Part shown: in pieces, positions 4,315 to 48,894 of the stretch
How the letters are laid out: the number at the start of each line of letters is the position of its first letter
Position numbering within the stretch: the stretch's first letter is position 1
NCBI GenBank assembly: GCA_001799715.1
Contig: MGTZ01000041.1
Span: forward strand, 35,420 to 99,419
Reading direction: 5' to 3'
DNA length: 64,000 nucleotides
DNA from: Elusimicrobia bacterium GWB2_63_16
GTDB lineage: Bacteria; Elusimicrobiota; Elusimicrobia; Elusimicrobiales; UBA9959
The notes under the pieces: model-generated
Told to the model about the DNA's origin: nothing
What the model saw: the letters and a program-made list of their open reading frames with translations, nothing else
Databases searched by the model: none
Position numbers and translations under genes: made by a program

Positions 4315-4421
4315 GGGCCGCCGGCGCCGCGCAATTCATGGGCTTTAACTTGAACCGCTAAATTACTATTTCATAACATATCTTTCGTTAAGGCTGTTGC
4401 TTTGGGTTGCTACAGGGGACG

Positions 4422-5543
4422 ATGAGACTTCTTCTTATACTGCTTCTCGCAGCGCCGGTGTTTTTTGTTCCGGACTGCGGCGCCACTCCGCCTAAGGCTC
4501 TTCTTTCCGCCAGGGAAGCCATCCTCTCGTCCACCGGAACCCCCCAGGCGGCGTTCCTGAAATACGTAGAGGCCTCTAAAAACACCATCGCCGCGCCGGC
4601 GGTGGCCGAATACGCCTATGCGCTGGCCTACGCTGGCATGGGCGAGGCCGCGCTTTACAACATCGACCGGGCGCTGATAACCGAGCCGCTGAACGCGGAA
4701 GTGCGTTTCTACCTGGCGGAGTTGCTCAACGCCGCCGGGCTGGAGGAAGCCTCCTCGGAGCAGTCCGCCCCGGTCCCCGCCTGGCTCGGGGGGAAGCCGC
4801 TCAAGCTGCCTGCGCTGGAGGTGACGGTGCCCGACGGCGATATGGAGCGCGCATCCGCCGCCATCGGCCTGCTGATGGCTCAAAGGCGTTACGCCGAAAG
4901 CGCGGTACTTTACGACAGGCTGTGCGCGAAGCTGCCAGCGGAGCCGCGCTGCCGGGCTGGCTACGCTATCTGCCTTGAAAAGCTGGGCGCATACCGCTCG
5001 GCCGCGGCCGAGGCCGGAAAGGATCTCGCCTTGAGCAGTTCAACGGAGCATAAAGCGGCGGCGGAAGACTACATCTCCGATCTGGGGAAGCGACCGCCGC
5101 TCACTTATTCTTCGGCTAAAACCACCCTCAAAGGACGTTACCTTGCCTATCTGGGCGGGAGCCTGACCAGGGCGGACGGCCGCAGCCTCACGGCGGTGAG
5201 CGCCAGGCTCGGGCGTTTTCTCAGCGAGCGCGTGGACGTCTCGCTGAACGCCGCCCTGACCGGGGGGCGGGAGGATGGCGATTACAACGGCGTGACGCTG
5301 GGCGTAAGCGGGCGCTACAACAAGCCGCTCGGCCTGACTCCGCTTAACTGGACTTTGGCGGCAAAGCTGGAGCGCGTGCCCGCGCCCGAAAAGAACACAA
5401 GCCTGCTGCTTTCCCCCGGTTTAAGCTACTTCACGGCGTCTGGTTCCCTCGATCTGTACCTCGATATAGCTCTCGCGGGAGCCTTCAGCGGCAGCAGGAC
5501 TCTCTCGCTGGGCTACACGGTTTACTTCGGAGGCGGAAAATGA
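4422..5543 (+). CDS. Secreted TPR protein with C-terminal beta-barrel-like domain
   Basis: Signal peptide, TPR-like helices, amphipathic beta-strands ending LSLGYTVYF; ATGA overlap with the next gene. Confidence 0.7.
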   Translation: MRLLLILLLAAPVFFVPDCGATPPKALLSAREAILSSTGTPQAAFLKYVEASKNTIAAPAVAEYAYALAYAGMGEAALYNIDRALITEPLNAEVRFYLAELLNAAGLEEASSEQSAPVPAWLGGKPLKLPALEVTVPDGDMERASAAIGLLMAQRRYAESAVLYDRLCAKLPAEPRCRAGYAICLEKLGAYRSAAAEAGKDLALSSSTEHKAAAEDYISDLGKRPPLTYSSAKTTLKGRYLAYLGGSLTRADGRSLTAVSARLGRFLSERVDVSLNAALTGGREDGDYNGVTLGVSGRYNKPLGLTPLNWTLAAKLERVPAPEKNTSLLLSPGLSYFTASGSLDLYLDIALAGAFSGSRTLSLGYTVYFGGGK

Positions 5544-6262
5544 CCCGGTCCGCGCTGCTCTGCCTGGCGGGCATAGCCGCTTTCCGCCTGGCCGCGGCCG
5601 CGGCCGAGCCCGTAGCCTTTGTCGGGACGCCGGCGGCGTCCGGCGGCGTGGTGCGCCTGAAGGCAGCCGAACCGTATTTGAAGTGGAAGAAAGCCGAGCG
5701 CAAGGCCGCCGTAGAGGCTGAGTCACGCGCGTACTCGGGCGTAGGCGCGGCCGTGGTGGAGTACCCCGGTGGCGGCGAGATCTGGACCGTAGAGGCGGGC
5801 AGCGCCACACTGGCGGATTCGTGGTCGCGCGGCGGCATGCGCTTCGGCCGGCGCGCGCGCAAGGCGGGCCGCTGGTTCGGCCACGTGGGCGGCCAGTTCG
5901 TGCGCGGGGGCGACCTGCCGTCCAACGGCTGGACCGGCCGCCTCGGCACGACCCTCTTCAAAGACCGCTACGACGCGGCGCTGGCTGTGTCGCGCAACAC
6001 GTTCACCGAGTCCGACGACTCGGCGGTGACCACGCTTGGCCTGACCGTGCGCGCGCTGTATCCCTACACCGAGCACGCCGGTTTCAACCTTGGCCTCCAG
6101 CTTGACCGGGTGAGTTACACAGGTTACAGTAACGTTTCGCCCTCGGCGGTCGGGGGCATAAACATCTACCTGCCGGGCGGCAGCTTTGACGTCAGCCTGA
6201 GCTGTGGCGAGGCGGGGCGCCTGTCGCTGCTGGCCGGCTACACGGTATACATCACCAAATGA
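5540..6262 (+). CDS. Putative small outer-membrane beta-barrel protein
   Basis: Signal peptide; beta-strands ending LLAGYTVYITK, similar to the C-terminus of the upstream gene. Confidence 0.65.
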   Translation: MTRSALLCLAGIAAFRLAAAAAEPVAFVGTPAASGGVVRLKAAEPYLKWKKAERKAAVEAESRAYSGVGAAVVEYPGGGEIWTVEAGSATLADSWSRGGMRFGRRARKAGRWFGHVGGQFVRGGDLPSNGWTGRLGTTLFKDRYDAALAVSRNTFTESDDSAVTTLGLTVRALYPYTEHAGFNLGLQLDRVSYTGYSNVSPSAVGGINIYLPGGSFDVSLSCGEAGRLSLLAGYTVYITK

Positions 6263-9200
6263 TACGCGCCAGAACACTGCTCATCCCATTGCTGACGCTC
6301 CTGGCGTCCGGCTCCGGTGCGGCGACGCTTTCCGGGACCTGCAAAGTGACGGGGAACAGTTTCTCTTCTCCGTACGGCTACTGCGAACAGACTTTCGCGT
6401 TCTCGAGCGTCGAGCTTAGCGATGCCGACTGCCAGCTGTACAAGGCGCAGATGGACGGCGAAGCCTGCCGCGCGGTCGCGCCGTCCGGCGCCTGTAACTT
6501 TACGGCGGGCTATCTGCTGAGCGCCAACTGCAGCGGCGGCGGTTCAGGCTCCGGCTCCTGGTTCGGCGGCAGCGCGTTCTCGCTCGAACCGTTCGCCAGG
6601 CTCAATCCGTTCGGCCCGGAAGAGGGCGAGGCGTTCTACTCCGGCCACTACGGCTCCGGCCTGGAGGATTGGCGCGACGACGCGCTGGAGCGGTGGCGCG
6701 CCTACCTGGCCCGCAACGCATTGGCCAAGGAAACCGGCGTGTTCATCGGGCCGGACAATCCGTTCGCCCGGTCGCTGGAGTGGCTCTACCGGGCCCTGGC
6801 CGGCTCCAAACAGCCGGCCGCGCAGGTGGCGGGCACGTTCACCAATCTCGACTCCTCGCCGGAAACTGCGAGTTCCGCGCGTTACCAGGAAGACTTCGTG
6901 GGCAAGACGGTGCCGCTCCTGCGCGGCGAGGACGCATCCGGCCCTGCTGATGGCGGCTTCTCCGCGGTGAGCGGCAATAATCACGTGGCCGCGCATTGCC
7001 AGAGCGAGCCCGCGCTTTCCATCCCGCCTAGCTTCGGGGTTTCGTACGATTCCCTCTATGGCGGCCGGTCCGAGACCATCGGCCTGGCGCTGGAGCGCTT
7101 CCCCGACGGGCGGGCGGTATTTACGGACGGTTCCAACACCCGCTGGACGTTCAGGCCGTACGGGAAGCTGTCCCCGAAAAAAGGCGATAACTATTATCGT
7201 CCTCCCCTCGGTTCGCCCTACCGCCTGCTACTGGGCAAGCGCGGCTACCGCGTGGAGACTCCGGATGGCGACGTGATAGAGTTTTCGCCCGCGCCCGGTG
7301 AAGAGCGCTGGCGCCCCAGCCGCTACAACGCCGCTGACGGCAGCTGGCTCACCTATGCCTACGGCCCCAATGGTCTCGCCCGCATCACGGATATGCACGG
7401 CCGCTACTACGCTTTCGAACGCGACGCTAAAGGCCTGCCCCTGAGCGTCACCGACCAGAGCGGCAGGAAGACGGTCTTCGCCTACGACGCCCAGGGCCGG
7501 ACCACGGAAGTGGCCTCGCCCGACGGCTTTAAAAAACGTTTCGATTACAACGCCGCCGGCCAGCTGACCGCCGTGAAGAGCGGCTCCCTCGCCGAGGAGC
7601 GGTTTACTTATGATGCCTCCGGCCGGGTGCTTACCTCGGAGGCGGCGGGCGGCGTGAACCGCCTTGAGCATTACTATAACGACGCCGCCTCGAAGACCGT
7701 AATCACTGACGGGCTGGGGAGCCGGACAGAGTATTCCTATGTGAACGAATACGGCCGCAAGTTGACCACCGGGATCACGGACGCACTGGGCGGCCGGGTT
7801 TCCCTGTCATACGACCCGAATTACAACCTCGCCTCCGCCACCGACCAGCTTGGCCGCACCGTGAAGTATATTCGTAACTCCAACGGCGACCCCGAGGTTA
7901 TTACCGATGCTATCGGCAGCACTTCTACCATCCAGTACCAGGTAAAGCGCAAGTACCACGACGCCGCCGGAGAGCATGCCGACTATTATTCCAGGCCCAT
8001 AAGAATAGCCGACGCGCTGGGACGCGTTACCAGCCTGGGGTATGACAAGTACGGCAACCTCGCCAAGACCGTGGACGCTCTTGGCAACGGGACGGAGATG
8101 GACTACGACAAAGCCGGGCATATGTTGAGCCTGCGCGACGCTACGGGGGCCACTTACAGTTATGAGTACGGCAGGGGCCTGTCCCGGAGCGTCGACCCCC
8201 TGGGACGGGCGACCAGGTATCAGCGCGACGCCGAGGGCCGCGTGGCGCTGCTCACCGACCCGCTGGGCAGGAACACCTCTTTCACCTACGACCTCAGCGG
8301 CAACGTCACCTCCGTCACCAACCCGCAGAACTTCGTCATAAAATTCGCTTATGGCGACGGTGCCTGCCCGTCTTGCGCCGGCGGGCAGCTTGCGTCCCTT
8401 ACCGACCCCAAGGGCAATACCTGGGCTTTCAATTACGACCAGTACGGCAGGCTGAGCGATACCGCCAACCCACTTGGCCAGAAGAAAACCTATCAGTACG
8501 ACATGATGTCACGCGTGACCGAAGTGAGAGACCCGGCGGAGAATCTCACTACCTATGCCTACGACGCGATGGGCAGGCTTACCAGAAAGGACATAGAATC
8601 CCCTTCCGGCGGGCACGCAGTAACGACCTACGTCTATGACAAGACGGGGAATCTTTTGAACGCCGCCAACGGCAACGGCATGGTCAGCTTCACTTACGAC
8701 GCACTTAACCGCCCTGTAAAGACAGAGCAGCTGTTCGCCGGCAGGTCCTACGCCATCGCCTACGCCTACGACGCTGTGGGCAACCGCACCAGCATGACCA
8801 CGCCGTGGGGGAAATATACCTACACCTACGATGCCCTGAACAGGCAGACGGGGATAGTTAACCCGCAGGGGATAAACGTGTCATTCGGCTACGACGCTGT
8901 CGGCCGCCGCACCAGCAAGAAGATATTCAAGACCACGCCGGAACTCCTGGCCGAGACCAGTTATTCCTACGACGCCGCGGGGCAGTTGCTCAATATCACC
9001 AACAAGGCGGGCGGCAAGGTTGTGGCCTTTACCAACTACCAATACGACGCCGCCGGCAACCGCGTTAAGAAGGAAGACCGGGACGGCACGACGCAGTACC
9101 GGTACGATGCCTCCAACCGCCTCATCACGGCGGAGCCAGTCCCGATGAAGATGGAGGATGCCGAAGTCTTCATCTACGACCGTAACGGCAACCGCCGCTA

Positions 9201-10353
9201 CGATAAGGGTGCCTGGGATTACAAATACGACGCGGCCAATCGTCTCTTGGAGAACTCCACCTACACCTACACCCACGACCTCAACGGCAATCTGACCGGC
9301 CGTGCCGACAAGCGGGACAATAGCACAATCACCTACGTCTACAACCCGGAGCAGCAACTTTCAGAAGTCATAACCCCTGAGCACAAGGTGCAGTATAAGT
9401 ACGACCCGCTGGGCCGCCGCCTTGAAAAGTCAGTGGACGGCAATATTGTGAGATTCTTCTCAGATGGACAGGATATTATCGCGGACCTTAACGCCGCCGG
9501 CAACCCTATAAACATCTACATCAACGGTCCAGGCATTGACGAGCCGCTGGTGATGACCAAGCCGGACGGCAAGAGCTACTACTATCATGCCGACGCCTTA
9601 GGAAGCGTAATAGCGATTGCGGACGATAGTAACCAAATTGTCGAAACCTACAGCTATAAAGCCTACGGGCAGCCGACGATAAAGGACGTCCAGGGCCAGA
9701 CCATCGAAAGCTCAACCATCGGCAACACTAGGATGTTCGCAGCCAGAGAGTATGAGAGTGAAAGCGGGTTGTACAGCAATCGCCACCGCTACTTAGACCC
9801 AGGCAGAGGCGCATTCACGCAGGAAGATTCTATAGGGTTTGTAGGCGGAAATTCAAATTTATATGTTTATGCGAAAAATCTGCCAAGCAAATATTCGGAC
9901 TCAACGGGCTATATTTTAGAAGAGGCAAAGTTGTGGTGGAAGGGTTTTGGATGGCATACCCATCAGGAAATTATTGATATCTACGCGAAAGATTTTAATC
10001 TTGCTAACGCGAGATTTGTGTTTTATAAACCCGATCTGCAAGCGGAGGGGCACACCTATTATAAGTACGGTGTAACTGGGGTTGCAATATCTGAAGTTGC
10101 TTTTACCAACCCTGGCTGGCTGAAATCAACAATTGGACATGAAGCTCAGCATGTGCAGGATATAGAGGCTATAAAAGCACATAAAATGGGTGGGGCGGAG
10201 GCTGAGGTCAGGGCATATGGGTGGGAATTAACCGCTGGATATATAAAAACAGATTCTGACGATATTCTGTCTGTCCTGGAGCAGTATCAAAAGAATTACA
10301 GTCTGCTCTCTCCAGAGTTGAAGAAGAAGTACTCAAGATGTCCAGGGAACTAG
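6259..10353 (+). CDS. Rhs/YD-repeat polymorphic toxin with signal peptide and C-terminal HExxH metallopeptidase-like tip
   Basis: Many YD repeats; Rhs core end RYLDPGRGAFTQEDSIG...PSKYSDSTG; tip GHEAQH...EAEVRAY; GC drops at the tip. Confidence 0.92.
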   Translation: MIRARTLLIPLLTLLASGSGAATLSGTCKVTGNSFSSPYGYCEQTFAFSSVELSDADCQLYKAQMDGEACRAVAPSGACNFTAGYLLSANCSGGGSGSGSWFGGSAFSLEPFARLNPFGPEEGEAFYSGHYGSGLEDWRDDALERWRAYLARNALAKETGVFIGPDNPFARSLEWLYRALAGSKQPAAQVAGTFTNLDSSPETASSARYQEDFVGKTVPLLRGEDASGPADGGFSAVSGNNHVAAHCQSEPALSIPPSFGVSYDSLYGGRSETIGLALERFPDGRAVFTDGSNTRWTFRPYGKLSPKKGDNYYRPPLGSPYRLLLGKRGYRVETPDGDVIEFSPAPGEERWRPSRYNAADGSWLTYAYGPNGLARITDMHGRYYAFERDAKGLPLSVTDQSGRKTVFAYDAQGRTTEVASPDGFKKRFDYNAAGQLTAVKSGSLAEERFTYDASGRVLTSEAAGGVNRLEHYYNDAASKTVITDGLGSRTEYSYVNEYGRKLTTGITDALGGRVSLSYDPNYNLASATDQLGRTVKYIRNSNGDPEVITDAIGSTSTIQYQVKRKYHDAAGEHADYYSRPIRIADALGRVTSLGYDKYGNLAKTVDALGNGTEMDYDKAGHMLSLRDATGATYSYEYGRGLSRSVDPLGRATRYQRDAEGRVALLTDPLGRNTSFTYDLSGNVTSVTNPQNFVIKFAYGDGACPSCAGGQLASLTDPKGNTWAFNYDQYGRLSDTANPLGQKKTYQYDMMSRVTEVRDPAENLTTYAYDAMGRLTRKDIESPSGGHAVTTYVYDKTGNLLNAANGNGMVSFTYDALNRPVKTEQLFAGRSYAIAYAYDAVGNRTSMTTPWGKYTYTYDALNRQTGIVNPQGINVSFGYDAVGRRTSKKIFKTTPELLAETSYSYDAAGQLLNITNKAGGKVVAFTNYQYDAAGNRVKKEDRDGTTQYRYDASNRLITAEPVPMKMEDAEVFIYDRNGNRRYDKGAWDYKYDAANRLLENSTYTYTHDLNGNLTGRADKRDNSTITYVYNPEQQLSEVITPEHKVQYKYDPLGRRLEKSVDGNIVRFFSDGQDIIADLNAAGNPINIYINGPGIDEPLVMTKPDGKSYYYHADALGSVIAIADDSNQIVETYSYKAYGQPTIKDVQGQTIESSTIGNTRMFAAREYESESGLYSNRHRYLDPGRGAFTQEDSIGFVGGNSNLYVYAKNLPSKYSDSTGYILEEAKLWWKGFGWHTHQEIIDIYAKDFNLANARFVFYKPDLQAEGHTYYKYGVTGVAISEVAFTNPGWLKSTIGHEAQHVQDIEAIKAHKMGGAEAEVRAYGWELTAGYIKTDSDDILSVLEQYQKNYSLLSPELKKKYSRCPGN
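8461..8817 (+). repeat. Near-identical direct repeat shared with orphan Rhs (12203-12559)
   Basis: About 357 bp with few mismatches; offset 3742 bp. A second identical 54-bp block lies at 9367-9420 / 13109-13162. Confidence 0.9.
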
Positions 10354-10357
10354 TTTT

Positions 10358-10975
10358 ATGAAAAGCAACAGTATTTGGAAAATGAGTGTTTGCTCGTTAT
10401 GTCTGTTTGTTGTTATTCTTTTCGGTCAAAAACTAGTTTTCAGGAAAAATGTAAATCAGATAAATGAAGGTTTCGACTGTATTAAAGGAATGGCGTCAGG
10501 AGTTGGCGGTACAGAAAGAACGGCAGCAAAATCGTTGGAGTTTACAGTCCATTTTGAGAAGCAGGAGTATTCATTGTCTGAGCGAATTCCCATAAAAGCA
10601 ACTTTCAACAATACTTCAGATGAAGATTATTATATCGCGATCAGCAATCTTGAAGGCGGACTAGTATTCCGTGCAGAGGAGGGGTCTGTCGGAGAGATCG
10701 TTAGCAAATCAGTTTTGCTGGGAAGACCGGGCTTTCATGGAAAAGATTACTATTATCTGCTCAAAAAACATGAAAGTAAGGTGATAGCCGTTGAGTTCAA
10801 TAAATTGTATTCCGTGAGTCCGATTGGGGAATATAAAATAACAGCGAAATATTGGAACTGCACTGCCGGGAATGTATACACAAGGGTGCCTGCTTGGAAA
10901 TTCTGGAAGACTCAAAATAGGGTTTGGATCGGGGGGGTTGAGTCTAACGCGGTTTCTGTTAAATTTGTGAAATGA
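10358..10975 (+). CDS. Putative immunity protein of Rhs tip 1 (membrane-anchored)
   Basis: Starts 4 nt after the rhs stop; AT-rich; N-terminal hydrophobic segment. Confidence 0.65.
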   Translation: MKSNSIWKMSVCSLCLFVVILFGQKLVFRKNVNQINEGFDCIKGMASGVGGTERTAAKSLEFTVHFEKQEYSLSERIPIKATFNNTSDEDYYIAISNLEGGLVFRAEEGSVGEIVSKSVLLGRPGFHGKDYYYLLKKHESKVIAVEFNKLYSVSPIGEYKITAKYWNCTAGNVYTRVPAWKFWKTQNRVWIGGVESNAVSVKFVK

Positions 10976-11099: not shown

Positions 11100-11315
11100 A
11101 TGGCTATAAATGAAACAGCATTTTGGGCGGTATTTGTGTCTGGCGTAGTGAGTGCTTTTCTGGGGAGTATTTTGGGGATAATGCTCTATCCCACATTTAA
11201 TCAAGTTATTGGGGGGTATGCGAAATATGGCTCGTGGGGGATTGGCGTTTGTGCGGCAGCGATTCTGTTTGCGTTCACACGCTATTGGATTGTCCATCTG
11301 CTGAAGCATAAATGA
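11100..11315 (+). CDS. Small 2-TM membrane protein (possible orphan immunity)
   Basis: RBS AGGGGA; two hydrophobic segments; inside the low-GC cassette region. Confidence 0.45.
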   Translation: MAINETAFWAVFVSGVVSAFLGSILGIMLYPTFNQVIGGYAKYGSWGIGVCAAAILFAFTRYWIVHLLKHK

Positions 11316-11388: not shown

Positions 11389-12069
11389 GTGCCAGTGAAA
11401 AGCCAGAGTGACGCGAAACTTCGAGAGCAAATCTTGTTCAGCGAAGGAGCACAACTTGCTGGAGTATCATCTGCTTGCGCTATTAAGATATTGTGCGCAT
11501 TTGCCAGAGACAAAAGCCCGGAGTTGCGGATGCGTGTGTATGAGCGCATGAGCGCATACAAGGGACGAGAGATAGCCATGTGTCTTATGCGTTCACTGCA
11601 TAAAGAGAAGGATGTTTTGGCCACAATCGCAGCCATGGAGAGTGTCGGGTGCCTGAAGATAACGTCTGCGATGAAAATACTTATTGCTAAATTGCATCAC
11701 AGAAATCCCATGGTGCGGGGATATGCTGCGATTGTTTTAAGTGAGCGTTATGGGGCGAAAGTGTTGCGTCAGTTGGAAACCATATTAAAAAAAGAACGCT
11801 CGGCTTGGGGAAAGGCTGCATTGTATATAGGGATGTATAAGGCGGGGGCAACATATGTTCTGCCGGATATGTTGCGGTTGCTTAAGTGCCGGCAATATCG
11901 AGTTAGGTCTTTTATTGTGAATAATCTATGCGGCATAAAGTTCAATAATGACATCGATTCGGTCATCAATGCTTTGCGTTCCCAGGTTAAAATAGAAGAA
12001 AATGTGGTGGTCGCTTCTGCTATGAAGCGCGCTTTAAGGTGTGCACGGGCAATTCGGGTTAGGTCTTGA
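11389..12069 (+). CDS. HEAT-repeat protein (possible orphan immunity)
   Basis: RBS GGAGG before GTG; HEAT-like repeats (NPMVRGYAAIVL, YRVRSFIVNNL). Confidence 0.65.
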   Translation: MPVKSQSDAKLREQILFSEGAQLAGVSSACAIKILCAFARDKSPELRMRVYERMSAYKGREIAMCLMRSLHKEKDVLATIAAMESVGCLKITSAMKILIAKLHHRNPMVRGYAAIVLSERYGAKVLRQLETILKKERSAWGKAALYIGMYKAGATYVLPDMLRLLKCRQYRVRSFIVNNLCGIKFNNDIDSVINALRSQVKIEENVVVASAMKRALRCARAIRVRS

Positions 12070-12085
12070 GACTTCCCGGCATCAA

Positions 12086-14104
12086 ATGATTCGATCCACA
12101 TTTCTGCTCATGTTCATGCTCGTGGCTGGGCTTTCGGCCTTTTCGTATGCCTCGTTGCCCATTTCTCCGACCAAGACTGTGATGTGCGGCCGCCTGCCCG
12201 ACACCGCCAACCCACTTGGCCAGAAGAAAACCTATCAGTACGACATGATGTCACGCGTGACCGAAGTGAGAGACCCGGCGGAGAATCTCACCACCTATGC
12301 CTACGACGCGATAGGCAGGCTTACCAGAAAGGACATAGAATCCCCTTCCGGCGGGCACGCAGTAACGACCTACGTCTATGACAAGACGGGGAATCTTTTG
12401 AACGCCGCCAACGGCAACGGCATGGTGAGCTTCACTTACGACGCACTTAACCGCCCTGTAAAGACAGAGCAGCTGTTCGCCGGCAGGTCCTACGCCATCG
12501 CCTACGCCTTCGATACCGTGGGCAACCGCACCAGCATGACCACGCCGTGGGGGAAATATGACTACACCTACGACGCGCTGAACAGACAGACCGGGATAGT
12601 GACCCCCCAGGGGATAACCGTTACCTTCAGTTATGACGCCGTTGGCCGCCGCACGAAGAAGTCTATCTTCAAGAACAGCCCTGAAGTACTTGCCGAGACC
12701 ACCTACTCCTACGATGCCGCCGGCCAACTGCTTTCAATAGTGAACAAAGCCGGCGGCAAAGTCGTTGCCTTCGCCAACTACGAATACGACGCGGCAGGCA
12801 ACCGCGTTAAGAAGGAAGACCAGGACGGCGCTATAAAATACAGATACGACGCCTCCAACCGCCTAATAACGGCCGAGCCAGTCCCCATGAACATGCCGGA
12901 GGCCGAGGTCTTCATCTACGATAAGAATGGCAACCGCCGCTACGACAGGGGCGCCTGGGACTACAAATACGACGCCGCCAATCGCCTTCTGGAGAACACT
13001 ACCTATACCTACACGCACGACCTCAACGGCAACCTGACCAGCCGTACCAAAAAGGACGACAATAGCGCTATCTCTTATGCGTATAATCCTGAGCAGCAGC
13101 TTTCCGAGGTCATAACCCCTGAGCACAAGGTGCAGTATAAGTACGACCCGCTGGGCCGCCGCACGTCAAAGACCGTGGATGGTAGGACGATAAAATTCAT
13201 CTACGACGGCCAGGACATAATAGCCGAGCTGGATGACAATAACTCTGTCATCAACACCTACACCAACGGGCCGGGTATCGACGAGCCTTTGATAATGGCA
13301 AAGACCGACGGCAAGGCATACTACTACTATGCCGACGCCTTGGGCAGCATAAATGCAATCACCGATTACAGTAATCAGGTTGTAGAAACCTATGGTTACA
13401 AAGCCTACGGCCAGCCGACAATAAAGAACGCCTATGGGGAAATAGTCCAGAACTCGGTTATCGGCAACACGCGCATGTTTGCTGCTAGGGAATATGAGCG
13501 CGAGAGTAATATCTATAATAACCGCAATAGATATATGCATCCCGGTATGGGGAGATTTATACAAGAAGATCCTGCTGGTTTTGCAGGTGGAGATGCTAAT
13601 TTGTATGGGTACATTTTGGGGAACCCGCTTGCAGGGCGTGACCCGATGGGGTTATGGATTTATGTTGATAGGAAGGATTATAGGGAGTGGTATTCTTCAC
13701 GACAGAAATTGATTGGGGATCCATCTATTGCTGCTATATTTGAATATCTTGAAACAAATTCAAATAAGGATTATAAAATAATAATAAATTCTTCATTTCA
13801 CAATGAATTTGTCCCGTACGAGAACACTATATATTGGGACCCCAATACATGGGCAAAAACTACCGAAGGTGGCGATAGAAGCCCCACAGTATTATTGGCG
13901 CATGAACTTGCACATGCGCAACTGTTTGATTCTAGTCCTACGTCATACATAAGGTATAAACTTACTGGAATCGTACTGAATCATCTTCTGAATTGGAAGT
14001 ATGATGACCTTGAGGAGTGGCGAGTTATTGAATTATTTGAAAATCAAGCTGCAGGTGCATTAAAGGAATGTCAACGACACGACCATCGTCTTAAGAGGAA
14101 ATAG
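12086..14104 (+). CDS. Orphan (truncated) Rhs cassette with HExxH metallopeptidase-like tip
   Basis: Paralogous to the 3' half of the upstream rhs; NPLAGRDPMG cleavage motif; tip LLAHELAH. Confidence 0.88.
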   Translation: MIRSTFLLMFMLVAGLSAFSYASLPISPTKTVMCGRLPDTANPLGQKKTYQYDMMSRVTEVRDPAENLTTYAYDAIGRLTRKDIESPSGGHAVTTYVYDKTGNLLNAANGNGMVSFTYDALNRPVKTEQLFAGRSYAIAYAFDTVGNRTSMTTPWGKYDYTYDALNRQTGIVTPQGITVTFSYDAVGRRTKKSIFKNSPEVLAETTYSYDAAGQLLSIVNKAGGKVVAFANYEYDAAGNRVKKEDQDGAIKYRYDASNRLITAEPVPMNMPEAEVFIYDKNGNRRYDRGAWDYKYDAANRLLENTTYTYTHDLNGNLTSRTKKDDNSAISYAYNPEQQLSEVITPEHKVQYKYDPLGRRTSKTVDGRTIKFIYDGQDIIAELDDNNSVINTYTNGPGIDEPLIMAKTDGKAYYYYADALGSINAITDYSNQVVETYGYKAYGQPTIKNAYGEIVQNSVIGNTRMFAAREYERESNIYNNRNRYMHPGMGRFIQEDPAGFAGGDANLYGYILGNPLAGRDPMGLWIYVDRKDYREWYSSRQKLIGDPSIAAIFEYLETNSNKDYKIIINSSFHNEFVPYENTIYWDPNTWAKTTEGGDRSPTVLLAHELAHAQLFDSSPTSYIRYKLTGIVLNHLLNWKYDDLEEWRVIELFENQAAGALKECQRHDHRLKRK

Positions 14105-14106
14105 TT

Positions 14107-14736
14107 ATGATAAGCCTCTTGTCTGTAAGGGTTGTTGTATCTATAATTGCCGTTCTCTTCGCGGGGTATGTTTATAATTTGAAGCATATGCGATATAAAA
14201 ATGTTTATGCTGGTTCAATACTTACTCTCGGACTGGTTTTATTTCTTTATACCGTGTTTGAATATCGACGAATGAGATATGTCAATCACAAGTCAGACGC
14301 TGCGTTAATACAAGCCGAATTTAATTCGTATGCCGAACAGGTCTGTTCGGGGAATATATCCCATATTCGCTTGTACTATGTGTCTTTTTTTAGAGAGTCG
14401 GTCGCAAATATCGCTAAGGAATCAATTGCGGAATCTGCCGATATCACAATTGATCTTTATCCCAAAACAGATATAAATAGTATTAACCAGTTATGCTCTC
14501 GCATGATGGAATCCAAATTGTACGGTGCGGAATTCGAGGGGGATGGTTTTGATGCCCGAAGAGGATTGATAGTTTACGGTGAAAATAAAGCCCCTCTTTT
14601 CTCATTATATAGTGAAGGGGTGGGGGTTGGATATTTGAACGAAATTCAAGTGGTGTATCCTTGGAAAATAGACTCTTGGATACGTAATTCTTGCGTTGAA
14701 CATACTGGGAGGAATTCTTGGTATTTTATCTTGTAA
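14107..14736 (+). CDS. Putative immunity protein of Rhs tip 2 (2 TM plus soluble domain)
   Basis: 2 nt after the rhs stop; AT-rich; two N-terminal TM segments. Confidence 0.65.
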   Translation: MISLLSVRVVVSIIAVLFAGYVYNLKHMRYKNVYAGSILTLGLVLFLYTVFEYRRMRYVNHKSDAALIQAEFNSYAEQVCSGNISHIRLYYVSFFRESVANIAKESIAESADITIDLYPKTDINSINQLCSRMMESKLYGAEFEGDGFDARRGLIVYGENKAPLFSLYSEGVGVGYLNEIQVVYPWKIDSWIRNSCVEHTGRNSWYFIL

Positions 14737-14833
14737 GCGATAATGATAACTGCTGTGGCCGGGAAAATCCGGACCGATCTTTAGCCTGACTTAAGGTGTG
14801 GACTGCATGTAACAACTAATTGTTATGTATGCT

Positions 14834-15901
14834 ATGCGAAATGCGCTGATCCTGATATCGGTGATAGCTATCCCCGGCGTTTGCATGGGGGGACAGAATG
14901 CTGTCGTGCTGGCGCCATCTTCTCAACAGGGAGCCAGCCTGGACAAACTTACTTCGGAGATTTCAGCCAATGGCGGCTCAGTCTCTGTACTCCCCGCCGA
15001 AGAAGCCGATGTTAACCAGGCGGGGTTGCTTAATAACGGCGGGCCTGTCATCGTGGCCGAGCCGGGCGCGAAGGGTGGATATAAAGTCTACGACGGGGCA
15101 ACTGGCGCTGACATAACGAAGAAGTTCAACTCCGGGCTGGCGCCTAAAGAAGAGCCGCTTCCCGCGGCGGAGCCTGAGCCCGAACTCAAGAGAATAGAGC
15201 AGGCCGAGCCTAAAGCTAAGACTAAAGAAGCAGGCAGGTTCAAGCGCAACCACATCGGCCTTTCCGCCGGCATGACAAACTTGGAGAAGAACGAGGACAG
15301 CCTGGATATGCTGGCCACCAATCCCAACGCGGAGGCGAGCTATACCAAAACCACCGGGCGGTTCAGGATTTTCTTCGAGCATTATTTCAGCGAGAAGTAC
15401 GGCCTGGGCCTTGCCGTCGGCGCGCAAAAGGGCGCTCAGAGCATGCTGGATTTTTCCAACCGCACACTAGAGATAGACGGAGACCCCAAAAGCGCCACTC
15501 TGTACGGTATCCGTCGTTTTGGGCGGCATTTCGGCGTTTATCTGGGGGGCGGGGTGGACCTAACAGCCATAACACTGGACGATCCCTCCAACTTGGCCGG
15601 CGTCCCTTCCGGCGCGGGAGCCTTCGAGGGGCAGATCACGGCGCCTCACGCGGAGGCCGGGTTGATCTTCAGCGCCGGGAATTTCTCGCTGCGCTTCTCC
15701 CTCAAGGAAATCATGGGCGAAGGCACGGACGAACTGACCCGCGGCGCCAACGGCCCCAAATACCTGCTGATAACGCGCAACAACAACTCCGTTTCCTATA
15801 AATATTCCGGCCAGTCCCTGGGGCCCAACGAAGAGTATTTCAAGGTGGATATGGGCGGCTTCGCCTCCGCCGTCACCCTGAACTACGTCTTCGGCAACTA
15901 G
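14834..15901 (+). CDS. Secreted protein with C-terminal outer-membrane beta-barrel
   Basis: Signal peptide, Pro/Glu linker, beta-strands ending VTLNYVF. Confidence 0.7.
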   Translation: MRNALILISVIAIPGVCMGGQNAVVLAPSSQQGASLDKLTSEISANGGSVSVLPAEEADVNQAGLLNNGGPVIVAEPGAKGGYKVYDGATGADITKKFNSGLAPKEEPLPAAEPEPELKRIEQAEPKAKTKEAGRFKRNHIGLSAGMTNLEKNEDSLDMLATNPNAEASYTKTTGRFRIFFEHYFSEKYGLGLAVGAQKGAQSMLDFSNRTLEIDGDPKSATLYGIRRFGRHFGVYLGGGVDLTAITLDDPSNLAGVPSGAGAFEGQITAPHAEAGLIFSAGNFSLRFSLKEIMGEGTDELTRGANGPKYLLITRNNNSVSYKYSGQSLGPNEEYFKVDMGGFASAVTLNYVFGN

Positions 15902-42007: not shown

Positions 42008-42640
42008 CTATTTGGGTTTGTAGAGGCCGGGCCAGATGGGGGACAGCGAGCGCACGAAGGCGTCGGTGATGCCGGTCATTGCCGAGGCCACGTCGAAGCC
42101 CTCATAGGCCATGGAGGCCGACCACATGATGGAGCCGGTCTGCACGTCCACCATGCGAGACAGCAGCGACACGTTGGCCGTGGTGCTGAGCAGCTGCGAG
42201 TTGGGCAGGCCCATCACGGAGCCCTCGGAATATACGGTGCCGCCGCTGACCTGCGTCATGGTGGTGTTGCGCGGGTTGTCCGACTGATTGACTATATAGG
42301 AGCTCTGCGGCGTGCTCTCGGCTACCGTGCCCACGAACAGCGCGTCCACGCCCAGCAGCTTGCCCAGCTGCTTGGCGGTGGCCGGGTCGAAGGAGCCGGA
42401 GTCGGCCAGCGACTGCTCGCGCAATACGGCGTCCAGGCGCTGGCGCTCCACCACGTCGGCGCCGTGCATCAGCAGGCTCTGGGTCATCAGGTCGGCGGCC
42501 AGGTCGCCGCTGGGGCCGCTGAAAGAGATCACCGCCACGCGCTTTACCGAGGAGAAGTCCGAGCGGGGGTTCACGGCCACCCTGGGGGCGGCGCAGGCGG
42601 CTAGCAGCAGCAGGGCCGGCAGCAATAGTTGTTTTTTCAT
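42008..42640 (-). CDS. CsgG/HfaB-like lipoprotein
   Basis: Lipobox LAAC; VVERQRLDAVLREQ, GKLLGVDAL. Confidence 0.8.
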   Translation of the reverse strand: MKKQLLLPALLLLAACAAPRVAVNPRSDFSSVKRVAVISFSGPSGDLAADLMTQSLLMHGADVVERQRLDAVLREQSLADSGSFDPATAKQLGKLLGVDALFVGTVAESTPQSSYIVNQSDNPRNTTMTQVSGGTVYSEGSVMGLPNSQLLSTTANVSLLSRMVDVQTGSIMWSASMAYEGFDVASAMTGITDAFVRSLSPIWPGLYKPK

Positions 42641-47991: not shown

Positions 47992-48894
47992 TTACTTAAG
48001 AATGTCGGTCTTCTGCACCGCGGCCTTGGTCTCGGCTATGGAGAACTTGGGGTTGACCTTTACCACCTTGGCCGTCCCTATCTTCTCCTCCTCCGAGCCC
48101 AGCGATTCGCCGGTGTCCGGGTCCACCATGTCCTCGCCCATGCGGTAGATGCCGTAGACCTTGCCTGCCTTCTCGCCGTCCGCTCCGCCGGAGTTGATGT
48201 AGACCTGGTTGCCGGTGACCTTTATGATCTTCACGGCCCCGCCGCCGCCTTCGTCGAAAGCTTTGGTGAGTTCCTTGACCACGCTTTCTACCGCCTCGCG
48301 GGCGGCCTTGCCGATGATGGTCTCGTCGAAGCCGTCCTTGCCGAAGTCGAAGTCGGGCGCTATGCTGAGGTCGCCGGAGAACTCGGCGCTGGACTTCTTG
48401 CCCTCGCCCTTGGCCGCCGCCACGATCTGGGCGGAGGTGGTGTCGATGGCCCTGATATCTATGGCCGCGCGGGCGGTGTTCTTGGACATCTTGGCCCCGC
48501 CGCCGAAAGGCAGCACCTTCTCCAGGCCGCCCACTCCGATCTTGCTGTCCTTGACGCCGAACTCGGTGATGGAGCCGGTGATGATATAGTTGGCGCCCAG
48601 CAGGCGGCCTATCTTGGCAGCGGTCTGCGCGGTGACGGCGCCCGAGGCGCCCAGCCGCTGTTCGTCGAGCACCTTCTCCAGCTTCTCCCTTTCTATAAGG
48701 GTGTATTTTTTGGTCTCGGCCAGGGCCGTGACCATCATGTCGGCCACGCCGGTGCCCACGTTCTGCCAGCTGTGGCTGTGGCTGGATTTGTCCTCCAGTT
48801 CCATGACGCAGACTATCTTCTTGCCGGCGCAGAAGCCCGGCGCCGCCGCGGCCAGCAACAGCGAAATAGAGACGAGAATTGTCCGTTTATTCAT
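47992..48894 (-). CDS. CsgG/HfaB family protein with FlgT-C-like domain
   Basis: IEREKLEKVLDEQ, GRLLGANYIITGSITEF, DPDTGESLG. Confidence 0.85.
   Translation of the reverse strand: MNKRTILVSISLLLAAAAPGFCAGKKIVCVMELEDKSSHSHSWQNVGTGVADMMVTALAETKKYTLIEREKLEKVLDEQRLGASGAVTAQTAAKIGRLLGANYIITGSITEFGVKDSKIGVGGLEKVLPFGGGAKMSKNTARAAIDIRAIDTTSAQIVAAAKGEGKKSSAEFSGDLSIAPDFDFGKDGFDETIIGKAAREAVESVVKELTKAFDEGGGGAVKIIKVTGNQVYINSGGADGEKAGKVYGIYRMGEDMVDPDTGESLGSEEEKIGTAKVVKVNPKFSIAETKAAVQKTDILK

Follow-up and report, generated by a model that had tools for sequence, protein, structure and literature searches.

How Sec-exported polymorphic toxins of diderm bacteria cross the outer membrane, and stay at it, is an open gap (PMC4287609, PMC13018210). 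RHS repeats are tabulated under the type II secretion system (T2SS)/Sec route in Table 1 of PMC3482391, which also gives the lineage-specific N-terminal domains MAFB-N, Microscilla-N and APD, and teneurin-like toxins have been described without obvious delivery machinery (PMC13018210). Two systems offer the nearest comparison for the present work. Secretion of MafB of Neisseria depends on its signal peptide and requires neither PilQ nor MafA (PMC4287609), and for T9SS (type IX secretion system) cargo of type B, 14-stranded PorP-like barrels have been proposed as cargo-specific anchors (PMC9143113). Here we analyse a stretch of 64,000 nucleotides (the window) from Elusimicrobia bacterium GWB2_63_16 (assembly GCA_001799715.1, contig MGTZ01000041.1, positions 35,420-99,419), in which two genes for predicted outer-membrane barrels, A and B, stand directly upstream of the gene for an Rhs/YD polymorphic toxin with a Sec-type leader.

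Our data show that this cassette and the N-terminal segment shared by its cargo proteins are real and conserved, a conclusion that we hold with high confidence. An initial annotation had proposed that a dedicated barrel pair exports or displays the Rhs protein by an uncharacterised delivery route. We did not find the cassette described in the full-text literature searched, a scope outside which lay most subscription papers and all supplements, including those of PMC3482391. PMC3482391 mentions Elusimicrobia twice, at least once in a toxin phyletic list, and the available text of bioRxiv 10.1101/2023.11.21.568195 does not mention the system. The route therefore still counts as one not found described, whereas Sec export of Rhs proteins is in itself already known (PMC3482391).

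Linkage of the barrel pair to a shared cargo segment

The three genes lie on the plus strand, as do the other genes of the cassette. Gene A (4422-5543) is an open reading frame of 373 residues from its ATG, with an in-frame TTG upstream at 4407, and encodes a signal peptide, a TPR domain and a predicted 8-stranded outer-membrane β-barrel. Gene B (5540-6262, 240 residues) encodes a signal peptide, a small α/β domain and a second predicted 8-stranded barrel, and the cargo gene (6259-10353) encodes the Rhs protein of 1364 residues. As first annotated, the stop codon of A overlaps the start of B, and that of B the start of the Rhs gene, in ATGA motifs, with all three frames open. Since this coupling was seen again in most related loci, it is not due to chance.

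The cargo leader (approximately residues 1-21), a head with six cysteines (22-91) and a Gly/Ser linker occupy positions 6259-6558. The leader was called by hydropathy rather than with SignalP; the cysteines fall at residues 28, 42, 58, 70, 79 and 91, and the linker comes next, in agreement with the N-terminal architecture proposed originally. Behind them lies a conserved segment (residues 99-179, positions 6553-6795) with the pattern F..GxExG..F[ST]xH[YA]...W, defined from an alignment of Rhs and non-Rhs cargo. The cargo proteins of the related loci follow a common plan of leader, variable Cys-rich head, Gly-rich linker and conserved segment of 60-80 residues. The head differs widely among relatives (4-12 cysteines); the non-Rhs cargo of locus L020 shares 37% identity with the window head and segment start (E 2e-27). 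No Pfam family matched cargo residues 1-330, hence none to DUF1020, and an ESM Atlas assignment of residues 22-250 to DUF6531 (0.81) was discarded because its lead was no better than chance. On alignment evidence, the segment is a candidate recognition signal.

We assessed linkage in 29 loci from species-representative genomes and 14 metagenome loci. A cargo gene adjoins A-B in 23 of the 29 genome loci, the other six (L003, L011, L012, L014, L026 and L029) being cut by a contig edge on the cargo side; no genome locus with full flanks lacks cargo. Sixteen loci read A-B-Rhs, L015 reads A-B-cargo up to the point where its contig stops after 99 cargo residues, five (L019, L020, L022, L025 and L028) have non-Rhs cargo upstream of A-B, and in one (L024) the cargo is fused to A. 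Gene order thus varies with type, A-B-Rhs versus cargo-[X]-A-B, and the link between cargo and A-B holds in both. The metagenome loci comprise eight with the order A-B-cargo, among them one (L060) near-identical to the window and excluded as an independent locus and three too short to show the Rhs core, together with three of non-Rhs type, two with too short a cargo side (L068 and L072) and one false match of 21 residues (L073), which was discarded. Barrel homologs are therefore tightly linked to a toxin gene in other genomes; neither of the two outcomes against which the initial annotation had staked its proposal, upstream proteins that are no barrels or homologs without linkage to rhs elsewhere, was borne out.

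The same association emerged when we searched for the segment itself, with a profile seeded from 17 loci for the locus search and one of 29 rows genome-wide. Three unseeded non-Rhs loci were caught (L069, E 1e-16; L070, 4e-12; L071, 3e-18). Among 401 Elusimicrobiota genomes the segment occurs in 13, all of which carry A at E <= 1.3e-72, and 15 of the 16 segment places lie within ~2 kb of A on the same contig, both genes being cut by contig ends at the sixteenth. In three more genomes A is cut at a contig end. A match of any strength to A was obtained in 67 genomes, and in the remaining 51 of these the matches are weak (E 7e-9 or worse) and nearly all to the TPR part. Rhs cores were found in 65 of the 401 genomes, only 12 of them A-positive, which shows that the A-B pair follows the segment and not Rhs. 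The pair proposed as dedicated to this Rhs is hence linked to its cargo, as suggested, but non-Rhs cargo that has the same segment is found beside it as well. A tree of 28 A proteins, unrooted and with L015 typed from gene order alone, has one branch (support 100/99) that splits Rhs-type from non-Rhs-type loci. In the L024 fusion (5904-8429; P0131) leader, Cys-rich head, segment and Cys-rich repeats are joined to A in one frame, and no other leader was found in the frames before A.

Within the genome of origin (G000), A, B, the cargo segment and a further gene, C, are each single-copy, the next-best frame for the segment profile scoring E 0.12, and the two Rhs genes of the cassette are the only ones. 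Other genomes hold two or three A-B loci, namely G333 (C1 and C2), G206 (three contigs) and G212 (two contigs), the last with one Rhs-type and one non-Rhs-type locus and a cargo gene split into two frames in both. The cassette is flanked by recQ and rnhA; because these are adjacent to each other in L001, the genes from A to C look as if they had been inserted as one unit.

Predicted barrels, variable tips and neighbouring genes

AlphaFold2 models of A (73 sequences) and B (46 sequences) agree with the proposal that the upstream proteins are a TPR-barrel and a barrel. The model of A comprises a TPR domain (residues 25-223) and eight strands (240-369) with a mean predicted local distance difference test (pLDDT) score of 89.2, and that of B an α/β domain (27-96) and eight strands (112-237) with a pLDDT of 87.9. 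The best structural match was OprF for A (Z 17.3, root-mean-square deviation 2.1, 122 residues aligned) and NspA for B (Z 17.7, deviation 2.3, 130 aligned), and Foldseek likewise returned OmpA-type proteins for A and 8-stranded OmpA-type barrels for B. Both are thus predicted outer-membrane barrels of the OmpA type; no known secretion translocon stood near the top of the fold-search lists. The two proteins match in BLASTP (29% identity over 134 residues, E 4e-7) and in profile-profile comparison (probability 98.7%, E 4e-16, 135 columns), by which they are paralogous over the barrel only. They share the motif GYTVY noted previously, although it sits just before the end and is not terminal (GYTVYF-GGGK in A, GYTVYI-TK in B).

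Neither A nor B has a family match above cut-off in Pfam, NCBIfam or PHROGs; TPR_19 of Pfam falls slightly below it on A (E 3e-5), and PHROGs gave nothing for six proteins. We collected 96 homologs of A and 24 of B, the named ones all from Elusimicrobia save a record labelled Bdellovibrionota (P0089), the only one to turn up in a weak search beyond Elusimicrobiota. B was not found among plasmids or phages, and in the ESM Atlas it met only unnamed barrel clusters (143-152 of 256 features in common). Residues are conserved in loops predicted to face outward (L2-L4 in A, L1 in B). In L026, related to L024, B bears two extra repeated N-terminal domains.

The Rhs core (7246-9909) scores E 1.6e-84 with RHS_repeat in 15 stretches and 52.3 bits with TIGR03696 (Rhs_assc_core; cut-off 32.5). 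The closest solved structures are Rhs cages of T6SS (type VI secretion system) type (E 4e-48), those of teneurin-like proteins (TLPs) being weaker (E 2e-26). Its Asp motifs, DSIG at residue 1190 and DSTG at 1214, are of the paired kind that serves autoproteolysis in Rhs proteins. A CxxC at residue 703 (8365-8376) is present in every full-length relative compared.

The variable C-terminal tip (147 residues, 9910-10353) has HExxH at residue 1294 and is a putative zinc metallopeptidase toxin, with no Pfam or NCBIfam match. Its GC content is 0.43 versus 0.59 for the core. In every relative read the tips are unlike one another on a conserved core, and the window tips and the first immunity gene find matches only in the near-identical L060 or none at all. 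Three of 15 tips scanned match Tlde1 (E 1.5e-17, above cut-off, 1.1e-6 and 0.012) and one matches Peptidase_M91, the remainder having no useful match. Other tips we take by eye to be Gly-rich or phospholipase A2-like, and motifs of non-Rhs cargo to be HExxH or papain-like. Of the hand-picked genes directly after relatives' tips, 13 of 14 have a signal or membrane segment, as do both such genes of the window, which points to envelope targets. The tips are likely antibacterial.

The gene after the main tip (10358-10975, 205 residues) encodes a putative cognate immunity protein, so assigned from its position, its GC content of 0.40 and its hydropathy, with an N-terminal hydrophobic anchor or signal. 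It is followed by two probable orphan immunity genes, a small hydrophobic open reading frame of 71 residues read directly (11100-11315) and a HEAT-repeat protein of uncertain start (11389-12069; HEAT_2, E 1e-10). A short Rhs module (12086-14104) comes next, with its own signal-peptide-like leader, the core's C-terminal half, at 79.5% identity to the main Rhs over 488 residues, and an HExxH tip unlike the main one, which reaches Peptidase_M91 at E 3e-5 (24.9 bits; cut-off 25); its putative immunity protein (14107-14736) has two predicted membrane segments. In L105 (11673-13730 and 14549-16513) and L027 (5776-7104), from two other genomes, short Rhs genes open with a related leader attached at the same position of the core, making four copies in total, and by eye the codons that these have in common differ chiefly at third positions. 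To judge from their sequences, short modules may not be silent orphans but half-cage proteins that are exported. In G322, an A-negative genome of the same genus, an Rhs protein of 3856 residues with a different N-terminus is followed by spare modules (L106, 7094-18664).

Gene C (14825-15901), for a secreted protein with a probable C-terminal β-barrel, closes the Rhs-type cassette in relatives. It adjoins the cassette in L008, L013, L021, L027, L037 and L015/L066, and a remnant persists in L002; as it is missing from several loci it is not core. Strong matches to C (E <= 3e-67) occur in nine of the 401 genomes, all A-positive, and barrel-only matches in 15 further genomes, 14 of them A-negative. 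We considered C as a homolog of B, but no homology was detected. Like the immunity gene, the second, short Rhs module and the N-terminal domain of B, gene C had been overlooked at first. Gene D, a conserved secreted protein of ~320 residues, lies between non-Rhs cargo and A (L019 1350-2306, L022, L025, L028 and L071). It follows the cargo in five loci, is propeller-like by eye with no Pfam match above cut-off, and is perhaps an accessory component instead of an immunity protein.

Elsewhere in the window, positions 1-258 hold the end of a probable β-barrel gene, preceded, just outside the window, by a peptidase M6-like protein with an end resembling a T9SS C-terminal domain (CTD). Two CsgG-family genes lie on the minus strand (42008-42640 and 47992-48894), the second adjoining a lytic transglycosylase gene, and an apparent T2SSK match proved to be the helix-hairpin-helix of a Tex protein. 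A, the Rhs core and C are each covered in part by contigs of related strains from one RNA run; these contigs also span flanking genes, and DNA carry-over is possible, so we do not count them as evidence of transcription.

Possible routes across, and retention at, the outer membrane

The genome of origin is 91% complete, and controls were detected in our searches for T6SS markers. Checking it for T6SS, as the initial annotation had advised, we found no TssC, VgrG or PAAR by profile search, and no TssC in 15 other A-bearing genomes (0/16 in all); nor was the contractile phage sheath of an extracellular contractile injection system (eCIS) found in it. A PF03865 (TpsB) search also returned nothing, although here no control was detected. 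The genome does contain three Omp85 matches, four secretins, including PilQ, a Tad-linked one and a GspD-leaning one, and a SprA-like protein of 1776 residues (G000:C8 4671-10001, L113; TIGR04189, E 3.6e-37). In the parallel check for T9SS, the SprA-like protein scores 127 bits against a cut-off of 200, and 20 T9SS-CTD-like matches lie elsewhere in the genome and none at the Rhs. A SprA-like gene is present in 15 of 15 other A-positive genomes and equally in 20 of 20 A-negative ones, so we rejected its co-occurrence with A as evidence and regard the protein as available, not implicated. With SprA-like genes in 36 of 36 genomes and the CTD-like matches here, the phylum probably has a reduced T9SS-like pathway. 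A SprA-like gene 3 kb from the cargo of G262 was treated as chance, since housekeeping genes, one on the opposite strand, lie between. The barrel pair is not the only candidate for an outer-membrane route, the SprA-like protein and the secretins being others.

Barrels of the 8-stranded OmpA type are too narrow to pass a polypeptide, which makes a cargo-specific dock or anchor the likelier role of A-B, and a pore the less likely one. Of the original alternatives of export and display, display or docking consequently fits better than export. The reading that we favour, at just short of an even chance, is that A-B serves as a cargo-specific dock and anchor that reads the N-terminal segment while a large shared channel translocates. 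Cargo would pass the inner membrane via Sec, disulfides forming in its Cys-rich head, and A-B would bind the conserved segment (residues 99-179) with the TPR of A on the periplasmic side. The outer membrane would be crossed through the shared channel, for which the SprA-like barrel found across the phylum is the likeliest candidate and a secretin the alternative, and A-B would retain the cargo at the surface in the manner proposed for PorP/SprF-like barrels with T9SS type B cargo. The Rhs cage would cleave itself and the freed tip attack the envelope of a touching competitor, the variable Cys-rich head selecting the target and envelope-located immunity proteins shielding kin.

Several observations weigh against this dock-and-anchor reading. 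The SprA-like gene lacks specificity and scores below its family cut-off, as described above; VKOR was not found (DsbA and DsbB were not searched for); known T9SS signals are C-terminal, not N-terminal; and deletion of mafA leaves MafB secretion intact, so that an outer-membrane gene may be linked to a toxin without serving in its export. With the 17-locus profile, L013 and L016 show a degenerate segment (E ~1e-3), and in L062 none was detected. The A-bearing genomes are kin and many of the 13 segment-positive ones seeded the segment profile; it is therefore the lack of a segment match in the remaining 388 genomes that is informative. In some non-Rhs cargo (L070, P0128, P0130 and P0132) the C-terminal end consists of Cys-rich repeats and no toxin is apparent, and G333 has two short Rhs modules with C and no A-B in 11.6 kb upstream, its two A-B loci lying elsewhere. 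The L024 fusion, known from one contig only, supports a physical link between cargo and A, yet it suits equally well a reading in which cargo stays inside the outer membrane, tethered by the periplasmic TPR of A for vesicle loading or hand-over on contact.

In 8-stranded barrels the N-terminal domain points into the periplasm, and the fusion would on that account place its cargo there; MafA and MafB have moreover been reported in vesicles (PMC4287609), and the tips look envelope-acting. We nonetheless consider such tethering unlikely, given conserved residues in predicted outer loops, a variable head that is most easily an exposed receptor-binding part, and a fusion that is a single record. 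That A and B themselves form the translocon, as a 16-stranded hybrid (8+8) or larger oligomer with POTRA-like TPR and α/β domains, would make a new two-partner-like type. Two paralogous barrels coupled in nearly every locus, very short loops, periplasmic domains ahead of both barrels and a summed strand number equal to that of TpsB/Omp85 barrels all fit, but each chain alone gives a confident 8-stranded OmpA-type model, conserved charged strand residues seem suited to a plugged lumen, and threading a head closed by disulfides would be difficult; we rate this pore as rather improbable. The MafA precedent, the four secretins with one GspD-leaning, and the 53 of 65 Rhs-bearing genomes that manage without a strong A match favour a role in which A and B accompany the toxin without moving it, in reception, kin recognition or adhesion, the cargo leaving by a secretin or the SprA-like protein. 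Against this role, which we hold to be improbable, stand a link that tracks the N-terminal segment over two gene orders and many bodies, translational coupling and the cargo-A fusion. Finally, several non-Rhs cargo have nothing but helical bodies or Cys-rich repeats, and the gene after them is a conserved propeller-like one instead of a variable immunity gene, as if the system displayed adhesins or surface enzymes and toxin tips were a side branch; the Rhs type of the window, with its variable tips, low-GC tip/immunity pairs and extra modules, shows instead the pattern of a polymorphic toxin, and we think such non-toxin display very improbable.

Whether dock or pore, A-B could constitute a new outer-membrane route independent of T6SS for both Rhs cages and non-Rhs effectors, its cargo-specific 8-stranded barrels reading an N-terminal signal and either feeding a SprA-like translocon or forming a split 8+8 pore. 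We put this forward tentatively, as possible but well short of an even chance; the SprA-feeding version, if true, would be an N-terminal counterpart to T9SS type B sorting. Under the dock-and-anchor reading too, the cassette names candidate parts, two small barrels and a short cargo segment common to bodies that range widely, from an Rhs cage of 1,300 residues to peptidases and repeat proteins, and three genes suffice to put the outer-membrane step to the test in E. coli. Should the segment be a portable signal it would offer a new handle for surface display, and the mechanism, if true, would reveal the means of competition of an uncultured lineage from groundwater and sediment without T6SS.

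Relation to known secretion and toxin systems

In CdiA/CdiB too, the gene for a polymorphic toxin that is exported by Sec and has an N-terminal secretion segment, here a candidate one, lies downstream of an outer-membrane barrel gene. CdiB, however, is one 16-stranded Omp85 barrel with POTRA domains, whereas A and B have eight strands each and no ShlB/POTRA match, and the cargo here lacks a TPS domain and FHA repeats. Slam (type XI) likewise fuses TPR to an outer-membrane barrel beside cargo genes, but has 14 strands and DUF560; A has eight predicted strands and no DUF560 match. With T6SS Rhs proteins (for example PDB 7q97, 8h8b and 7pq5) the window Rhs shares the YD-repeat cage, the two Asp motifs, the variable tip and the immunity gene. 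It differs in having a Sec-type leader and Cys-rich head in place of a PAAR/VgrG N-terminus, no match to which was found in Pfam or NCBIfam, and a CxxC in its core. Bacterial TLPs (PMC13018210) and WapA are also Sec-targeted YD-shell toxins without a contractile machine. Diderm TLPs, in contrast, are described as signal peptidase II (SPII) lipoproteins that contain a TIP domain, and they are far longer proteins; no barrel pair is described for them in the available text; the window Rhs has no teneurin/TIP match in Pfam and no cysteine after its h-region.

T9SS type B comes closer in its logic, with a cargo-specific barrel proposed to take cargo from SprA and anchor it and TPR and propeller partners nearby (PMC9143113), and a SprA-like protein is present in our genome. 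PorP-like barrels have 14 strands and their cargo a C-terminal signal, as opposed to eight predicted strands and an N-terminal segment here, and no T9SS CTD matched the window Rhs in Pfam or NCBIfam. The MafA-MafB-MafI system of Neisseria (PMC4287609, PMC3482391) is similarly lineage-restricted and combines a signal peptide, a conserved N-terminal domain and a variable tip with a lineage-specific outer-membrane gene upstream, immunity genes and spare tips downstream, and an outer-membrane step that is likewise unexplained. MafA is a lipoprotein, in contrast to two predicted integral barrels, one with TPR; A and B show no MafA match and no conserved cysteine in their alignments, and the cargo here, which has a Cys-rich head and may bear an Rhs cage, lacks DUF1020.

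In conclusion, the features that define T6SS, CdiAB, MafAB, Slam and T9SS type B each exclude the present module. Our data demonstrate a real and apparently undescribed polymorphic-toxin trafficking module of Elusimicrobiota, two small barrels and an N-terminal segment, the mechanism of which we infer, and which by analogy would work most like MafAB and PorP-anchored cargo.

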